A stretch of DNA of 62,033 bases, filler included. It is 8 parts of 8 records of this genome, joined end to end, with 100 filler letters (N's around TTAATTAATTAA, not from the genome) between each part and the next. Parts side by side here need not be neighbours in the genome. Positions count along the whole stretch, not along the records: positions 39,599 to 45,541 come from SRR31156797_106012; 7 more parts are not named here. One strand, written 5' to 3'. This document shows positions 5,767-50,973 of this stretch, one piece after another. A program made the position numbers and the translations under genes. The notes below the pieces were generated by a model. The model was not told where the DNA came from. It did no database searches and saw nothing but the letters and a program-made list of their open reading frames with translations. Position 1 is the stretch's first letter; every line of letters begins with the position of its first letter.

Positions 5767-5866
5767 NNNNNNNNNNNNNNNNNNNNNNNNNNNNNNNNNN
5801 NNNNNNNNNNTTAATTAATTAANNNNNNNNNNNNNNNNNNNNNNNNNNNNNNNNNNNNNNNNNNNN
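5767..5866. other. artificial contig spacer
   Basis: N44-TTAATTAATTAA-N44. Confidence 0.99.
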
Positions 5867-12396: not shown

Positions 12397-12496
12397 NNNN
12401 NNNNNNNNNNNNNNNNNNNNNNNNNNNNNNNNNNNNNNNNTTAATTAATTAANNNNNNNNNNNNNNNNNNNNNNNNNNNNNNNNNNNNNNNNNNNN
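12397..12496. other. artificial contig spacer
   Basis: N44-TTAATTAATTAA-N44. Confidence 0.99.
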
Positions 12497-18184: not shown

Positions 18185-18284
18185 NNNNNNNNNNNNNNNN
18201 NNNNNNNNNNNNNNNNNNNNNNNNNNNNTTAATTAATTAANNNNNNNNNNNNNNNNNNNNNNNNNNNNNNNNNNNNNNNNNNNN
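18185..18284. other. artificial contig spacer
   Basis: N44-TTAATTAATTAA-N44. Confidence 0.99.
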
Positions 18285-27047: not shown

Positions 27048-27147
27048 NNNNNNNNNNNNNNNNNNNNNNNNNNNNNNNNNNNNNNNNNNNNTTAATTAAT
27101 TAANNNNNNNNNNNNNNNNNNNNNNNNNNNNNNNNNNNNNNNNNNNN
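27048..27147. other. artificial contig spacer
   Basis: N44-TTAATTAATTAA-N44. Confidence 0.99.
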
Positions 27148-39498: not shown

Positions 39499-39598
39499 NN
39501 NNNNNNNNNNNNNNNNNNNNNNNNNNNNNNNNNNNNNNNNNNTTAATTAATTAANNNNNNNNNNNNNNNNNNNNNNNNNNNNNNNNNNNNNNNNNNNN
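39499..39598. other. artificial contig spacer
   Basis: N44-TTAATTAATTAA-N44. Confidence 0.99.
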
Positions 39599-40342
39599 CT
39601 CACTCCCGATAAAATCAGGTATGACAAGGTTAAACTGGTCGATTATCCACTCATTTCCCTTTCGGACTGAAATACTGCGCTTAATCTCCCTCAGAGGTGT
39701 TTCATTGTGAATTAAGTGATCGTCGATCTCGATTTTTCGGGCCACCATCATCAGAACGGGTTTGGGATAGATCAAAGCATCCACATTACCGGAGAGGAGC
39801 GAGAAGAGTGCATCCTCCGCCGTCAGGAAAACATGAACATCGGCGTTATCCACCTCCTGCACCAGGACAGCCCCCACATTGGATTCAACGACGGCGACAG
39901 TTTTTCCCGATAAACCGGAGAGACTGTCCACCGATTCAGAACTCTCCCTGAAGAAGATATGGATCGGAAAAGTTTCCACGGGGTCGGAGAATGAGCGGGT
40001 TGCCAGTCTTCCGGAGGTTATCCCCTGATTAGGGATAATATCAATCTCTCCGGTATCGAGGGCCGCATTCATATCACTCCAGCTCTCTATACCTATAAAT
40101 TCAATTGAAAATCCTGCCAAAGGGGCCAGAGCATTGATGATATCTATGGCAAACCCTTGGGGATCTCCGCTCTCCGAAAGACTGTACTGAGGTGGAAAAG
40201 AGGGATGAACCCCCACCCTCAGATGTCCGTTGGCGGCCTCCTCAGCCGGGAGTCTCCAACTATTAACAAAGGAAAGAGTGAATAGAAGAAATAGGATAAG
40301 GGTTTTACCCGGAAGCATATAAAAGCGTTTCATCATAGTCAA
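39599..40342 (-). CDS. family 3 solute-binding domain protein (possibly a sensor N-terminus), truncated
   Basis: LRVGV...FPP...GFAIDI...W..M.AAL..GEIDI...LSGKTVAV...LLSG.VDA. Confidence 0.8.
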
Positions 40343-40566
40343 ATCCTGTTCACCAGGAGAAAGAAAGAATCCCTCCCCCCTCTGATCTCACCCTTAATCC
40401 TAATCGATTCGCTAAGGAAATCAAACAAAATCATAAACTATATGATAATTTTTAAAATACAGCACAAAAACTGGTTTTATTAAAAAAGTCCATTATAATT
40501 CAGTGCAGGATCAAACAAACAATCGAAATACAAATATCAGAGCTATCGATGAATCAGGAGAAATTG

Positions 40567-42807
40567 ATGAGCAAAATAAACTGGATTCCGGGACTTTTAA
40601 TATCAGCAATCGTATTTTTCTCTTGTGCATTCGGCAGCGATCCCCTGGGAGAAGATTCACCAGCCGAACAAATATCGGCCAATGTGATAACGGGCACCAT
40701 TAAAGTGTTTCCTGATGTTGATTCCAGATCGACGTCCCGATCGACCGATATAATTATGCGCAGTGATATGGTACCGGCCCAGGCATTGGTCAGCATATAT
40801 TTGTTAAAAGATGTCCATTATAACGATCCTGTAGCAACCGTAAAAACAGATGCAAACGGTGAGTATGAAATTACCGCAGAAGATGTTCGCGGATATTTAC
40901 TGTCCCACAACCTGATTACCGAGGAGACGGAGGAAGAGGGTGTGATAACGGCCTTTCGGGCCCTGGGCAAGGTTCAGGTGAGGGCCCTTGTGGTGAAGCA
41001 GACAGAGGGTGTAGAAAGTGCCATCGCTATTCAGAGTATTGCGGATCCTTCTGATATTGATCCGACGACTGGACTACCGACCCCGGTCGCGGTTGATCCC
41101 ATCGCTCATCGTCTAATCAAAGCAATAATAAACCAAATCAAGGATTCTATTTCTAGTTTAAGCACCTTGAATATGTCGAATGATCTTTTCCAGAGTATTA
41201 CAGATGAAGTGATAAATTCGGTAAGCACAGAGATTGAACATGTGCTGGAAGAAGCTCCAACCTCTATCATTGAAATTCCCGAAGGACAATCAGCGGCCGA
41301 TGTGATTGCTGCTCAGGAGGCTGAATTAGAATTGATTATGCCTGATGAAAACCTGGAATCCTTGATTCTCATGCTGGACTCGGAATCCGACCTGCTGGAG
41401 GACGATTTGACAGGACCCGCAAATCTGGATGAGATTTTAACGGCCGAGGAAGCAGTGAGTGATTCCGGCTTATCCAGCAGCCTGGATGATGAGGCATGGG
41501 GGCTGCTCTCCGGTCTGGAAAATGCGCTGAATGAGTCCCTGGAAGAATCAATTGAAACGACCATTGAGGAAGACAATGTCACCCTGGATCCGGATAGAGA
41601 AGAGATGCTCAATGAATTAAGAACTGATTCCAGAAGAACAACCTTGCTCAATCTGGGGTATATACTGGCGTATGACAGTGATGATGATAATCAGTCTGAC
41701 AGCTTAATCGTTCCCTTCTCCCCTCCGGCCTGGATGGATACCGTCAACCTCCCCGGTACAAGCTACGGTGGAAATGAAAGGTTCAGGGTCATCTCTATTG
41801 ACGGGTTAAAAACTGAGGTATCCGCACTGAAAAGTTCATTCTCAAACGACACGGACTTCTCCAACGCCCTGTATAATGAAACAGACCGTGGGGATGCGCT
41901 GACGATATTGACCTATATAAGGTTTGGGGAAACATTGAACAGGCGAACGATTGTATCCGGCAATTTTATAGAGAGCCTGATAGACCTGGACAAAACGACA
42001 ACGGTTGAGGAACTTTGTAACTATCTCACGGCCAATTCCATGTTAGAAAGGACCCCCTGGTTTATAGGGGCAGGAGGTCATTTTTATCATAATTATATTA
42101 CCTCTTCAATAAACCCCGGCAACAGTTTATATGATCAGCTGCTCGATTACATAACCTATGATTATTCTGCAGATGATTATAATTCTCTGACAGGCTATTT
42201 TCAACAGAGTAAATTATACACCGCTCTGGCCCTGGGAGTGCTCAGGGAAGAGTATGAGGAACTTCTCATCGAGCATGGTAATGATGGTTTTGATTATACG
42301 TCCATTTATCCCGAATCCGAGGATTATGAAGATAAAATACTCAACAGCAGGGTCTTTAACGAGACCACAATTGATGAAATAAGCAGGGCTTACTACAGTT
42401 GTTTCGGGTTCGAATCCGATTCTATATTCAGTGCCCGTGGTAACGGTTCGACAAGCTTATCCCCCTATGAATTGTTGCTGGTGAATCAGATACTGAACAA
42501 ATTAACCTATCTCTATTCAGACACAGAGTCCGCTCCTCAGGCCATCGGTGTAGCGGATTTGGCCTTGGAAGGAGAAGCTGATAATCATTATATTCCACAA
42601 TGTGAAAACCTCTATAAGCTGACACCCGCTTTAACAGAAAACTATCCTGTCGATTATCTGGTTGATTTATTGGGGATAGAAAACTTCACTCATGAATCCG
42701 GTTTCTTTATTCTTATGGATGCTGTGGCAGACCTATATGAGATGGGCGGTATTTATGAAGGATTTTACAATTTCCCCGAATATCAGGAAGAGGTAAGTCA
42801 GCAGTAA
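40567..42807 (+). CDS. large acidic lipoprotein of unknown function
   Basis: AGGAG RBS, lipobox-like IVFFSC, Asp/Glu-rich, TVKTDANGEYEI beta-sandwich-like motif. Confidence 0.7.
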   Translation: MSKINWIPGLLISAIVFFSCAFGSDPLGEDSPAEQISANVITGTIKVFPDVDSRSTSRSTDIIMRSDMVPAQALVSIYLLKDVHYNDPVATVKTDANGEYEITAEDVRGYLLSHNLITEETEEEGVITAFRALGKVQVRALVVKQTEGVESAIAIQSIADPSDIDPTTGLPTPVAVDPIAHRLIKAIINQIKDSISSLSTLNMSNDLFQSITDEVINSVSTEIEHVLEEAPTSIIEIPEGQSAADVIAAQEAELELIMPDENLESLILMLDSESDLLEDDLTGPANLDEILTAEEAVSDSGLSSSLDDEAWGLLSGLENALNESLEESIETTIEEDNVTLDPDREEMLNELRTDSRRTTLLNLGYILAYDSDDDNQSDSLIVPFSPPAWMDTVNLPGTSYGGNERFRVISIDGLKTEVSALKSSFSNDTDFSNALYNETDRGDALTILTYIRFGETLNRRTIVSGNFIESLIDLDKTTTVEELCNYLTANSMLERTPWFIGAGGHFYHNYITSSINPGNSLYDQLLDYITYDYSADDYNSLTGYFQQSKLYTALALGVLREEYEELLIEHGNDGFDYTSIYPESEDYEDKILNSRVFNETTIDEISRAYYSCFGFESDSIFSARGNGSTSLSPYELLLVNQILNKLTYLYSDTESAPQAIGVADLALEGEADNHYIPQCENLYKLTPALTENYPVDYLVDLLGIENFTHESGFFILMDAVADLYEMGGIYEGFYNFPEYQEEVSQQ

Positions 42808-42923
42808 GTATAGAGATTCAAGACCTGAAAAGATGAGCCCTTCTATAGACTCAATTATAATCCTCCCGGAGATTGAGGCAAACTCTCCCCCCGGGATTCG
42901 GTAGATTCATTACGGGAGGGAAT

Positions 42924-43400
42924 CTACTCCCCCGCCTTCGCCCGCCTCTCGGCTTCCTTCTTCACATTGGCCACCATGCCGCCGACGATACCGCTTAAGG
43001 CTTCTTCGTCAGCATCGAAATAGAAGGCCTCGTTAAAGAGGTGGTGGACGGTTCCGTCTTCGTTCAGGGTCAGGGTGTGAACGCCGGAGTAGTCCTTGCC
43101 CTTGGGGTCGATCCCCAGGTAGGCGTACTGACAGGGGCGGTCCATATGGATAATTTCTTCATCCAGTTCCCACTTCTCTCCGCTTTCGTGATCGCTTAAG
43201 ACCCAGTGGGATTTCATTCCCGGTCCCTCTTTCACTTCGGAAATAATCGTGACCGATTCGACATTCTCTTCCAGTTCCACAAAGAGCTGCAGATCGGTGA
43301 TGACATCGAAAACAGTTTCCATCGGGGCATTAATATCACTCTCTTTGGTGATAATCAGATCATCGGGGTTCCTTTTTTCAGGCATTATGGAATAGTCCAT
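42924..43400 (-). CDS. SRPBCC/START-like family protein
   Basis: INAPMETVFDVITD...W; AAAGGAG RBS before MDYS. Confidence 0.75.
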   Translation of the reverse strand: MDYSIMPEKRNPDDLIITKESDINAPMETVFDVITDLQLFVELEENVESVTIISEVKEGPGMKSHWVLSDHESGEKWELDEEIIHMDRPCQYAYLGIDPKGKDYSGVHTLTLNEDGTVHHLFNEAFYFDADEEALSGIVGGMVANVKKEAERRAKAGE

Positions 43401-43433
43401 TTCGGCTCCTTTTATCATTAAGCTTCCCCGGCC

Positions 43434-44393
43434 CTAAAGGCCGAAGAAACTCTTCTTTAGTATGTCATGCCGGATCTTCCCGGCGGAAAACACCTTACCG
43501 GTGTTCAGGTTGATAATTTCAACTTCGGCGGGCGAATGGATCGCCAGGTCCATCTTGTAAAAATCCTTCTCCGCTTCGATAAAGAGATCGACGAAAAGCC
43601 GGCCGTAGTCTTTGGCGCTTTCGGTGACCAGCTTAGGTATGACTTCTTCAATGATCGCATCTTCGGATCGGACCCAGAAAACGGCCTTTCCCCCGTAGAG
43701 GAGGCAGTCGTTGACCCAGCCCATCTCGGTCAGGTCATCCGGAGCCAGGGGGGCAACAGCGCAGAATCCCCGGGCCGTCACAATCTGCTTCACATCAAAA
43801 TGGTTAAGCATCATCTGGTTGATCGTCTGTTCCACAATCCGGGCAGAAACCTGGACTGTGTTGACGATGCAGTTGTAGGAGTGCATCAAAAGATAAAGGT
43901 TCTCCGGTTTGACCCCGCAGACTTCGGCAGCCCGGGCGGCAAAGGCGGCATCGGGAAGATTTCCCGAGGTGATGCCCATGACCGCTTCATGGTGTTCGTC
44001 GACGTAGTCGGTAAGCTGAACATGGTGATCGTTTTTACCCCTGGCCTGGGCTCGTGCGGGACCGGAACAGATAGCTGAAAACTCACCGTCGGTTAACTGG
44101 AGACCTGCCATCTGGGATGCGATGCAGGCAAGTTCGGGGTTATCCACGAAAACCTCGACTCCGGCGACGGAGATCTTTTCATCCAGGGGAAAGTCAGAGA
44201 GTGAAGTTCGACCTAAACAGGCCATATCGATATCGGTGAAGATTTTCGCTGCCTCCCAGCCCCCGGGAACTTCGATTCCCATATCGATGACATGGGTACC
44301 ATTCTCCAGGGTGTAATAATTGCACCCCAGAGCCTCGACGTTTTCAATCAAATCCCGAACCCGCTTCATCGAGTATTTATTAATTGAGATCAT
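43434..44393 (-). CDS. mch: methenyltetrahydromethanopterin cyclohydrolase (Mch) homolog
   Basis: MISINK, NGTHVIDMGIEVPGGWEA, P.LAC.ASQ.AG, SGPARA, VQVSARIVE, NDCLLYGG, YG..F...F...DFYKMD..SPA.V.I.NL.TG..F.AG. Confidence 0.88.
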   Translation of the reverse strand: MISINKYSMKRVRDLIENVEALGCNYYTLENGTHVIDMGIEVPGGWEAAKIFTDIDMACLGRTSLSDFPLDEKISVAGVEVFVDNPELACIASQMAGLQLTDGEFSAICSGPARAQARGKNDHHVQLTDYVDEHHEAVMGITSGNLPDAAFAARAAEVCGVKPENLYLLMHSYNCIVNTVQVSARIVEQTINQMMLNHFDVKQIVTARGFCAVAPLAPDDLTEMGWVNDCLLYGGKAVFWVRSEDAIIEEVIPKLVTESAKDYGRLFVDLFIEAEKDFYKMDLAIHSPAEVEIINLNTGKVFSAGKIRHDILKKSFFGL

Positions 44394-45541
44394 GCTTCCC
44401 CCTTCAGAGGCGCAGCCGATTCCAGAGTCTCACGGACTTCGTTCAGGAACCGGGCGGCGGGGGCGCCGTCGACGATCCGATGATCGTAGGTGAGGCTTAA
44501 GGAGAGAATGGTCCGTATATGTATGCCGCCGTCCTTTACAACGGGAGTCGGAATCATGGTACCAACGCCGAGGATAATAGACTGGGGCGCGTTGAGGATC
44601 GGGGTGAAATACTTTACGTTGAGCATACCTACGTTGGAGATAGTAGCGGCACCGCCGTCCATCTCCCCCGGGGCAAGGGTCCCGGCCTTGGCCCGGGAAG
44701 CAATCCCTGACAGGTCGGCACAGACGGTTTTCAAAGGTTTTTTATCAACACCCCGAAGGACGGGAACGGTCAGGCCGTAATCGGCATCCACGGCAACGGA
44801 GATATCGATCTCCTCCAGTGTCCGGATAGCATCGGTACCGGCCATAACGGTCCGGACGATGGGATGGTTCACCATGGCGCCGGCCATTGTTTTAATAAGA
44901 ATCGCCGTATAGGAAAGCTTAACTCCTTCGGCGGCATAGTCGGCTTTGACGGTACCGTATGCGGCGGCCAACTCAGTAACATCAACATCCATGGTGATGG
45001 AGGTCTGGGCGGAGCCCTGCATCGATTCCATCATTCGGCGGGCGGTAACCTTACGCACCGTGTTCATCGCAGCGCCTGGTCCGGCAGCCTTGGAGGCAGC
45101 GGGTGCAGGGGAAGCCTGAGGTGCGGCGGCAGGCGCCGGGGTGGCAGCCGGAACTGCTCCTGTCCCGGCATTCGCGCAAGCTCTAATATCCTCCCGGGTA
45201 ATCGCATTAAGAATCCCGGTGCCCTTGATCCCCCGGTAGTCGACTCCCATCTCCTCGGCAAGTTTCAATGCCTTGGGGGTAATCCGGATGCCGGGAACCT
45301 CTCCGGGAAATCCGGTACCTGAAGATGCAACCGCCGGTTGAGCCGGTGCCGCGGCGGGCTGTGCTCCCGGAACGGGGACAGAACCTGAGACCGGAGCCTC
45401 GACCGAAGGTTCAGAGCCGGAACTCCCGACCTCGGCACCGCCGGCGGCAGCCTCGGCTTCCAGCCCGCTGATGTCTTCATCGGCTCCGGCAAGGATCGCA
45501 ATAGGTGCCCCGCAGGGAAGGGTCTCCCCCTCTTCGCAGTA
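44390..45541 (-). CDS. dihydrolipoamide acyltransferase (E2), 5' truncated
   Basis: frame is open to the contig end (EEGETLPCGAPIAI lipoyl-domain tail, Pro/Ala linker, RITPKALKLA E3-binding); TISNVG, FTPILNAPQ, SLTYDHRIVDG. Confidence 0.93.
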   Translation of the reverse strand, partial: YCEEGETLPCGAPIAILAGADEDISGLEAEAAAGGAEVGSSGSEPSVEAPVSGSVPVPGAQPAAAPAQPAVASSGTGFPGEVPGIRITPKALKLAEEMGVDYRGIKGTGILNAITREDIRACANAGTGAVPAATPAPAAAPQASPAPAASKAAGPGAAMNTVRKVTARRMMESMQGSAQTSITMDVDVTELAAAYGTVKADYAAEGVKLSYTAILIKTMAGAMVNHPIVRTVMAGTDAIRTLEEIDISVAVDADYGLTVPVLRGVDKKPLKTVCADLSGIASRAKAGTLAPGEMDGGAATISNVGMLNVKYFTPILNAPQSIILGVGTMIPTPVVKDGGIHIRTILSLSLTYDHRIVDGAPAARFLNEVRETLESAAPLKGEA

Positions 45542-45641
45542 NNNNNNNNNNNNNNNNNNNNNNNNNNNNNNNNNNNNNNNNNNNNTTAATTAATTAANNN
45601 NNNNNNNNNNNNNNNNNNNNNNNNNNNNNNNNNNNNNNNNN
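45542..45641. other. artificial contig spacer
   Basis: N44-TTAATTAATTAA-N44. Confidence 0.99.
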
Positions 45642-50873: not shown

Positions 50874-50973
50874 NNNNNNNNNNNNNNNNNNNNNNNNNNN
50901 NNNNNNNNNNNNNNNNNTTAATTAATTAANNNNNNNNNNNNNNNNNNNNNNNNNNNNNNNNNNNNNNNNNNNN
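50874..50973. other. artificial contig spacer
   Basis: N44-TTAATTAATTAA-N44. Confidence 0.99.

Follow-up and report, generated by a model that had tools for sequence, protein, structure and literature searches.

A non-canonical Mch homologue in a conserved E1/E2 operon: candidate ring-opening hydrolase of a proposed nitrogen-heterocycle breakdown pathway

The locus and its Mch homologue

The DNA analyzed here, referred to as the window, is a stretch of 62,033 nt that consists of eight contigs of about 5–12 kb each from a draft bin, joined by linkers of the form N44-TTAATTAATTAA-N44, so that blocks lying side by side in it need not adjoin in the genome. The contig under study (39599–45541) carries three genes on the minus strand, encoding a dihydrolipoyl acyltransferase (E2), a homologue of methenyltetrahydromethanopterin cyclohydrolase (Mch), and an SRPBCC protein. 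Reading of the open reading frames (ORFs) of the window places all three where an earlier note, made from the sequence alone, had put them. That note had also proposed that the three genes belong to an undescribed catabolic module.

The E2 gene (44390–45541, minus strand; assigned by Pfam and motif) is truncated at its 5′ end by the end of the contig. Its 383 remaining codons, open at the 5′ end, cover the last part of the lipoyl domain as well as the E3-binding and catalytic domains, with Pfam matches to 2-oxoacid_dh (PF00198; E = 3.1e-68) and E3_binding (E = 5.6e-09), and the catalytic DHRIVDG reported in the earlier note is present in the translation. The lipoyl domain with its lipoyl-lysine lies mostly beyond the contig end in the window E2 and is present in the E2 orthologues of the four related genome loci described below (L001–L004); the window catalytic domain is 68% identical to the E2 of L002. 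Scored against TIGR01349, the equivalog model of pyruvate dehydrogenase (PDH) E2, the window protein reaches 219.7 bits and remains below the cut-off of 445. The TGA stop codon of E2 and the ATG start codon of mch overlap as ATGA at 44390–44393 on the minus strand (the plus strand reads TCAT), as the note had described. The overlap has the appearance of translational coupling, and the same −3 spacing is found in L001, L002, L020, and L068. Structure prediction of an E2–Mch complex gave a score of 0.00 in two runs, made without controls.

Downstream of E2 lies the gene for the Mch homologue (43434–44393, minus strand), whose 319-residue product we assign, on the basis of Pfam, TIGR03120, and phylogenetic trees, to a non-canonical, operon-linked clade of the Mch family. 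The proposed family match is real: PF02289 is matched over its full length (profile positions 1–311 of 311; 318 bits, E = 8.2e-95), the score against TIGR03120 is above the cut-off (289.2 bits versus 228.8), and Methanopyrus kandleri Mch (1QLM) is matched at E = 2.3e-70 with ~45% identity. Like characterized Mch (EC 3.5.4.27; structures 1QLM, 4GVQ, and 4FIO), the window protein shows homology along its whole length and keeps SGPARA as well as the SAR(I/V)VE segment with its Arg and Glu, here SARIVEQ, the two motifs that the note had recognized. Nineteen positions are at least 85% conserved in both halves of the family, among them R185 and E188 of the AR..E motif, which we take from the structural literature to be the catalytic, water-activating Arg and Glu of Mch. 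The chemistry that the two proteins likely share, and which we predict for the window protein, is the addition of water to an N-CH=N carbon.

The chief clade-wide difference between the two halves is the replacement of F by H in the (I)HSPA segment. The Phe of canonical F(A/S)PA (position 286; 91% of the canonical half) is replaced by His in 74% of the operon-linked half, in 97% of the subclade to which the window Mch belongs, and in the window protein itself. Glu142 (90% of canonical sequences) is Gln in 92% of the operon-linked half and Thr in the window protein; at position 227, Thr (69%) gives way to Ile (71%), with Val in the window protein, and at position 256, Pro (70%) gives way to Val (69%), which the window protein shares. 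The note had further drawn attention to SQMAGL in place of the usual SQ(K/Y)AGW. This segment is indeed present, but it is not a marker of the clade, most members of which have W or Y at the last position, and the W-to-L change is restricted to a small subgroup around the window Mch.

The separation of the two halves was evaluated in two trees. The first, made with FastTree, has 182 rows (representatives of 285–345 residues among the best 150, one in four of the close homologues, and the Mch genes of 22 loci) and splits with support 97 into 88 rows, which include every operon-linked Mch, and 94 canonical rows. The second, made with IQ-TREE under a mixture model, uses 64 of these 182 rows (118 were left out), and its 37 operon-linked rows all fall to the same side of a branch that has an SH-aLRT value of 96. 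On the opposite side of this branch are a methanogen (Methanotorris), a methylotroph (Methylophilaceae), Bathyarchaeia, and a haloarchaeon (Halorubrum), with organism names taken from database clusters, and the named members on the side of the window Mch are metagenome-assembled genomes (MAGs) of Spirochaetales, Clostridia, Oscillospiraceae, and Halanaerobiales. The window Mch therefore does not group with the enzymes of organisms that use tetrahydromethanopterin (H4MPT) in either tree, and the suggestion that it belongs to a clade apart from ordinary Mch is borne out.

The genes that surround Mch in H4MPT metabolism were sought in the genomes of the four related loci, one of which is recorded as a whole chromosome; these searches thus describe the relatives and not the window's own genome. 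None of the four has beta-RFAP synthase (TIGR00144, mptG), none has Fae, and none has Mtd over the cut-off. Ftr occurs in one, in another catabolic cluster, and FolD in all four. The relatives accordingly lack H4MPT biosynthesis as well as the ftr/mtd/fae context in which the earlier note expected to find an ordinary Mch. No match at E = 1e-20 or better was found in 300 further genomes drawn from the same phylum as G002, one of the four related genomes, which points to a patchy, transfer-like spread.

These results bear on the simplest alternative, in which the window protein is an ordinary Mch of an H4MPT-dependent formaldehyde or one-carbon (C1) pathway that merely happens to sit beside a pyruvate or acetoin dehydrogenase operon. 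The passing of the TIGR03120 equivalog cut-off, the ~45% identity to 1QLM, and the name that all sources give to such proteins would agree with it. The position of the protein on a separate branch, its retention in one operon with E1, E2, and a short-chain dehydrogenase/reductase (SDR) across phyla rather than with ftr/mtd/fae, related hosts without H4MPT biosynthesis, Fae, or Mtd, and the absence from the 300 sampled genomes do not. The clade, the operon, and the missing H4MPT genes of the relatives largely refute this alternative, which we consider very improbable. Judged by its sequence, the homologue is a member of the superfamily that falls outside the functional family in two features, its clade and its H4MPT context.

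In terms of annotation, the database proteins of the clade that carry a source name number in the hundreds, and all of them are labelled 'methenyltetrahydromethanopterin cyclohydrolase'; the MAGs with this label belong to Spirochaetales, Clostridia, Bacillota, and Chloroflexi. The label is likely wrong for the clade. Metagenome surveys that take mch or mer as marker genes for methanogenesis or methylotrophy would therefore over-count.

Conservation of the operon and its variants

A scan of genomes, with one genome per species, reveals four loci with a close relative of the window Mch: L002 in a Spirochaetales MAG (76% identity to the window Mch), L003 in an uncultured bacterium (71%; the gene is cut by the contig end), L001 in a Sediminispirochaeta MAG (62%), and L004 on a Chloroflexia chromosome (57%). 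The order E1alpha (~327 residues), E1beta (~325 residues), E2, Mch is found in all four. In L002 the full string comprises a TRZ/ATZ-type deaminase, E3, a GntR regulator, an SDR, E1alpha, E1beta, E2, Mch, and an SRPBCC protein, and in L001, L003, and L004 a RibD_C-like gene precedes the deaminase. L001 additionally carries a Bmp-type ABC importer, a cytidine deaminase, and a UbiD-like enzyme; L004 carries a second Mch, a lipoate ligase, a second amidohydrolase, amine oxidases, and a TIM barrel protein resembling sugar isomerases. The same Chloroflexia genome (G004) has, farther along, a third Mch as well as genes for a DeoC aldolase, an FGGY kinase, a luciferase-like protein, and a xanthine-dehydrogenase-type subunit.

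Scanning metagenomes with a 29-member alignment of the clade adds 80 further loci and brings the total to 85. The metagenome loci were drawn by two motifs of the operon-linked clade, and counts made on them consequently describe the clade and provide no contrast with canonical Mch. Partners were counted by tblastn, independently of gene calling, in the 36 of the 85 loci that extend at least 4 kb before Mch; gene-order counts based on ORFs under-count E1alpha (antisense ORFs, 'family 16', which have no Pfam match, occur in some loci). SDR is present in 34 of the 36 loci, E1alpha and E1beta in 33 each, and the E2 catalytic domain in 24, followed by the deaminase (18/36), a Mer-like gene (16/36), the RibD_C-like gene (9/36), a xanthine-dehydrogenase-type gene (8/36), and E3 (5/36). 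The relatives usually also have a regulator of the GntR or HTH-cupin type and, for transport, either a nucleobase-type Bmp ABC importer or an MFS protein; M20 and OTCase-like genes occur in some loci.

The adjacency of E2 and Mch, which the earlier note had observed in the window, recurs across phyla. In addition to the four genome loci, the E2 gene stops immediately ahead of Mch in 15 of the 17 loci, window included, in which Mch is at least 50% identical to that of L002 and at least 1.5 kb of upstream sequence is available; the exceptions are L025 and L029. Because the gene order recurs in relatives, the arrangement goes beyond chance. An assembly artefact or a chance adjacency might have been suspected in a window strung together from short draft-bin contigs. 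The synteny in 4/4 genome loci and dozens of metagenome loci refutes this possibility, and the assemblies agree. Run X1 may represent the source sample; a second assembly of it has a single Logan contig of 14,363 nt that spans 40400–45541 with 0 differences and extends 1,182 nt beyond 45541, and contigs from runs X2 and X3, which belong to another study, are 85–95% alike over parts of the stretch (43210–43645) and bridge the mch–SRPBCC junction. We regard the chance that the arrangement is artefactual as negligible. Since the contig stops at 45541, the E1 genes are expected 5′ of E2, outside the window; a tblastn search of the window with 11 operon proteins returned E2 and SRPBCC only, and E1alpha and E1beta were not found in it.

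With respect to the partner proteins, E1alpha has human PDH E1alpha as its nearest solved structure (4e-50). The E1alpha of L002 scores 323.9 against TIGR03182 (cut-off 393.85) and its E2 246.4 against TIGR01349 (cut-off 445), both below the cut-off; its E1beta passes a subfamily model only (340.5 versus 321), and its E2 reaches 80.7 on the AcoC model, which has a cut-off of 307. The deaminase is nearest to the deaminases of methylthioadenosine/S-adenosylhomocysteine, 5′-deoxyadenosine, 8-oxoguanine, and guanine, all under the equivalog cut-offs, and the Bmp binding protein is nearest to nucleobase- or atrazine-type binders. A protein of 339 residues is a member of the RibD_C family with the dihydrofolate reductase (DHFR) fold. 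Searches by sequence returned no solved relative of this protein, and its automatic Atlas names, 'pyrimidine reductase' and 'dihydrofolate reductase family', serve as a lead only.

The known system that the E1/E2 part of the operon most resembles in composition is the acetoin dehydrogenase (AcoABCL) or Gram-positive PDH complex, with which it shares a heterotetrameric E1, an E2 with one lipoyl domain, in some loci an E3, and an SDR as in clusters of the acoABCL-budC type. It differs in that E1alpha and E2 remain under the PDH equivalogs, the AcoC model scores low, E3 accompanies only 5 of the 36 loci, sister operons have a split E2 or just a lipoyl protein in its place, and the complex is always joined to Mch.

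Sister operons of this kind, in which Mch is 40–44% identical to the window Mch, have the order HTH-cupin regulator, E1alpha, E1beta, a free lipoyl protein of 90 residues, an E2 catalytic protein of 235 residues, SDR, Mch, and a luciferase-like protein. A further variant (L025, L029, and L030) lacks E1, E2, and SDR; here the genes downstream of Mch encode a DAO-type oxidase and a SoxA-like flavoprotein. L025 and L029 have the RibD_C-like gene and the deaminase upstream of Mch, and in both, as in L004, a sugar-isomerase-like TIM barrel follows Mch; L029 also has a DeoC aldolase. The variant without E1/E2 looks like an alternative route for removal of the same side chain.

Several clusters contain divergent Mch paralogues: four in L021, three or four in L077 and L079, and three within 18 kb in G004. 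A search for longer forms of Mch, as fusions would produce, found none. Two database proteins, P0004 (456 residues) and P0028 (472 residues), carry lipoyl and E3-binding domains but have an Mch domain in place of the E2 catalytic domain. In P0004 the SGPARA loop is missing from the Mch domain and Gly occupies the position of the catalytic Glu; in P0028 this position is Ser, and there is a gap of 32 residues. Both domains appear inactive and could represent decayed genes or the use of an Mch trimer as a scaffold, and we give them little weight because each is a singleton and its Mch domain is degenerate. Mch ORFs of 400–700 residues in GC-rich loci showed no extra Pfam domain and are probably over-extended.

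A candidate breakdown pathway and competing readings

What is observed, then, is an Mch family member with a conserved catalytic core in a separate clade and a conserved operon, and relatives that lack the genes for beta-RFAP synthase, Fae, and Mtd. On these grounds the notion of an undescribed catabolic module stands, and of the two alternatives that the earlier note had offered, the one in which Mch was repurposed to open a cyclic amidine is favoured; for the other, in which a formyl or acyl unit made by the TPP/lipoyl complex would be handled by Mch, the analysis gave no evidence of a transfer from the lipoyl arm. Our best reading, held with moderate confidence, is that the Mch homologue is a hydrolase that opens an N-CH=N ring in an undescribed pathway for breakdown of an N-heterocycle, with a purine-like compound as the probable substrate. 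The branch would, on this reading and with the same measure of confidence, have kept the Arg/Glu core of Mch, no longer act on methenyl-H4MPT, and take no part in methanopterin C1 metabolism.

In the reaction of Mch, which turns methenyl-H4MPT into N5-formyl-H4MPT, an N-CH=N carbon is hydrolysed and becomes a formamide. GTP cyclohydrolase III opens the imidazole ring of a purine likewise, in biosynthesis, and N5-formyl-tetrahydropterin shares a formamidopyrimidine substructure with ring-opened guanine. The early steps of riboflavin and archaeal pterin synthesis (GTP cyclohydrolases II and III, RibD) resemble the pathway proposed here in their reaction types, namely opening of an imidazole to a formamide, deamination of a pyrimidine, and conversion of a ribosylamine to a ribitylamine. 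They differ in that the RibD_C-like protein is the only homologous component and in the direction, which would be catabolic here, so that the resemblance is an analogy.

Two groups of genes suggest the nature of the substrate. The deaminase, the Bmp binder, the xanthine-dehydrogenase-type, M20, and OTCase-like genes, and the presence of up to four Mch paralogues per cluster are signals of a heterocycle. The RibD_C-like reductase, the amine oxidases and sugar-isomerase-like barrel (L025, L029, and L004), the DeoC aldolase of L029, and DeoC together with the FGGY kinase in G004 are signals of a side chain. An imported N-heterocycle with a sugar or polyol attached to one of its ring nitrogens would fit these signals best. 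The constant set of deaminase, RibD-like reductase, and one to four paralogues of Mch, combined with side-chain modules that can be swapped, is what makes breakdown of an N-heterocycle the best fit. Ectoine, thiamine, histidine, and riboflavin were also considered as substrates and dropped, as the operon offers no handle for them.

On this reading, Mch is the last enzyme of a catabolic operon with the core E1alpha, E1beta, lipoyl E2, SDR, and Mch. In a specific scheme built on it, an imported purine-like compound with a ribosyl or ribityl side chain would undergo deamination, after which Mch would hydrolyse the N-CH=N ring carbon to a formamide. The RibD-like enzyme would then turn the ribosylamine into a ribitylamine by reduction, and the SDR would oxidise a hydroxyl of the side chain. 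Finally, the thiamine-dependent E1 would cleave the resulting ketol or 2-oxo product, with transfer of the acyl part to lipoyl-E2 and on to CoA. This five-step course from deamination to acyl-CoA is tentative, and we hold it with far less confidence than the ring-opening role itself. The parts list alone is observed; we infer the substrate class, the order of the steps, and the role of every partner.

A number of results weigh against this interpretation. The substrate is not deducible from sequence alone, and the ~45% identity to M. kandleri Mch and the passing of TIGR03120 leave room for a methenyl-pterin-like substrate. The metagenome loci were selected by motifs of the clade itself, and the searches for H4MPT genes concern relatives. 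Nine loci (L034, L037, L041–L043, L045, L046, L081, and L084) have E1alpha and E1beta with a lipoyl protein of 77–91 residues only, and tblastn found no E2 catalytic domain in any of them, so a simple acyl-CoA ending does not explain these operons. The luciferase-like protein of the sister operons is a true Mer homologue, with Mer as its best PDB match (1e-43) and other F420 enzymes at ~1e-7; it follows Mch at L035:1656–2624 and in 33 other loci. By their sequences, two consecutive C1 enzymes of methanogens, Mch and Mer, are recruited together in the sister operons. A homologue of Ftr (1M5S, 5.5e-37) is furthermore encoded on contig 36 of G001, the Sediminispirochaeta MAG (L012:4399–5259). The other members of its cluster are an FGGY kinase, two amidohydrolases, a zinc-dependent alcohol dehydrogenase, an aldo-keto reductase, and a URO-D-like protein, and the cluster adjoins genes for an MtmB-like methyltransferase and a corrinoid protein. 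The trio of Mch, Mer, and Ftr fits a pterin-bound C1 route, or methanopterin as the substrate, about as well as it fits our own reading.

In a pterin-bound C1 route, the thiamine/lipoyl system would pass a C1 or formyl unit to a tetrahydropterin (tetrahydrofolate or another) in the manner of the P and H proteins of glycine cleavage, and Mch, SDR, and the Mer of the sister operons would interconvert the formyl, methenyl, methylene, and methyl levels. The glycine cleavage system likewise begins with a decarboxylating enzyme, has a lipoyl carrier and an E3, and includes enzymes of pterin–C1 type beside them, and the lipoyl carrier without E2 core found in some operons recalls the H-protein. The Mer homologue, adjacent to Mch in 20 of 92 downstream positions, the Ftr-like gene of one relative, the DHFR-fold RibD_C-like reductase, and the intact catalytic core of Mch also agree with such a route. 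In contrast to glycine cleavage, however, the first enzyme of the operon uses thiamine pyrophosphate instead of pyridoxal phosphate, and there is neither a T-protein nor any sign of a pterin acceptor. Beta-RFAP synthase, Mtd, and Fae are each missing from the four related genomes, all of which already possess FolD; two to four Mch paralogues per cluster would be superfluous for one cofactor-bound step; and the deaminases, importers, and GntR or HTH-cupin regulators suggest breakdown of an imported compound. Both the transfer of the unit to a pterin and the ensuing interconversions are therefore, in our assessment, unlikely.

A second alternative retains the ancestral ligand and changes its role. 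The bacteria would scavenge methanopterin or another pterin from dead methanogens, with H4MPT as the substrate for which Mch and the Mer- and Ftr-like proteins keep their affinity, and the deaminase, reductase, SDR, and E1/E2 would dismantle the pterin and its ribityl tail. This would explain why three families that bind H4MPT were recruited by bacteria that are unable to make it, and it would suit both a deaminase related to pterin and purine deaminases and the carriers, which are MAGs of Spirochaetales, Clostridia, Bacillota, Chloroflexi, and Halanaerobiales, groups that are largely anaerobic. The Bmp protein, on the other hand, resembles binders of nucleobases, which are small relative to a ligand the size of methanopterin, and the replacement by His across the clade of a Phe that is present in 91% of canonical sequences argues for an altered ligand. 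Scavenging in general, and the dismantling of pterin and tail by these partners in particular, appear improbable, more so than the C1 route.

Breakdown of an N-heterocycle thus remains the reading we prefer. An extended form of it, which we offer only as a speculation on a par with the five-step scheme, holds that Mch, and in the sister operons Mer and Ftr, may have been taken from archaeal C1 metabolism into the breakdown of purine nucleosides, where the ring chemistry of riboflavin and pterin synthesis would run in reverse and the thiamine/lipoyl complex would cut the ribityl chain, or the lipoyl arm would hand its cargo to the Mch-fold enzyme. If Mch, Mer, and Ftr have indeed been rebuilt for nucleoside breakdown, N-heterocycles would have a catabolic route of a new kind, and a machine of the 2-oxoacid dehydrogenase type would have a new use. 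A search of the full-text literature yielded no description of the operon or of the pathway that it would mark, in which a ring compound rich in nitrogen is broken down. Working out this pathway would be expected to reveal new enzyme chemistry on the Mch fold, an unusual task for a thiamine/lipoyl complex, and a so far unassigned piece of anaerobic nitrogen and nucleotide turnover.

The 3′ end of the operon and the rest of the window

The SRPBCC gene (42924–43400, minus strand) encodes a Polyketide_cyc2 protein (PF10604; 36.8 bits, cut-off 27.4; E = 5.9e-09). Its longest ORF opens at 43418, and an ATG at 43400 has AAGGAG 5 nt upstream; the tblastn alignment with the L002 orthologue begins at the latter position, which is likely the start. 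With this start, the gap of 33 nt between mch and the SRPBCC gene given in the earlier note is correct. The SRPBCC gene is found in only 3 of the 85 loci, with L002 and L016 supplying the other orthologues, and for this reason we regard it as a lineage add-on. A hairpin with a T-run, terminator-like by consensus match only, follows the SRPBCC stop codon at 42834–42853 (minus strand) and is the probable 3′ end of the operon.

The artificial linkers of the window, recognized by their sequence, occupy positions 5767–5866, 12397–12496, 18185–18284, 27048–27147, 39499–39598, 45542–45641, and 50874–50973; the one at 45542–45641, which has no strand, separates two contigs immediately 5′ of the truncated E2. 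Among the runs listed as holding the stretch there is no RNA run. The contigs of runs X2 and X3, at 85–95% likeness, indicate that relatives of the organism occur elsewhere.

Convergent with the operon, on the plus strand, is a gene for a strongly acidic protein of 752 residues with a signal peptide and a lipobox-like FFSC (40549–42807), and it is from this protein that the earlier guess of a spirochaete host derives. Rfam and tRNA searches of the window returned neither rRNA nor tRNA that could confirm the guess, and two large proteins of the window have matches of paralogue level only in the related genomes G001–G004. The guess does agree with the closest relatives of the operon, which come from Spirochaetales MAGs (76% and 62% identity of Mch), and a spirochaete host for the window DNA is plausible on that account.

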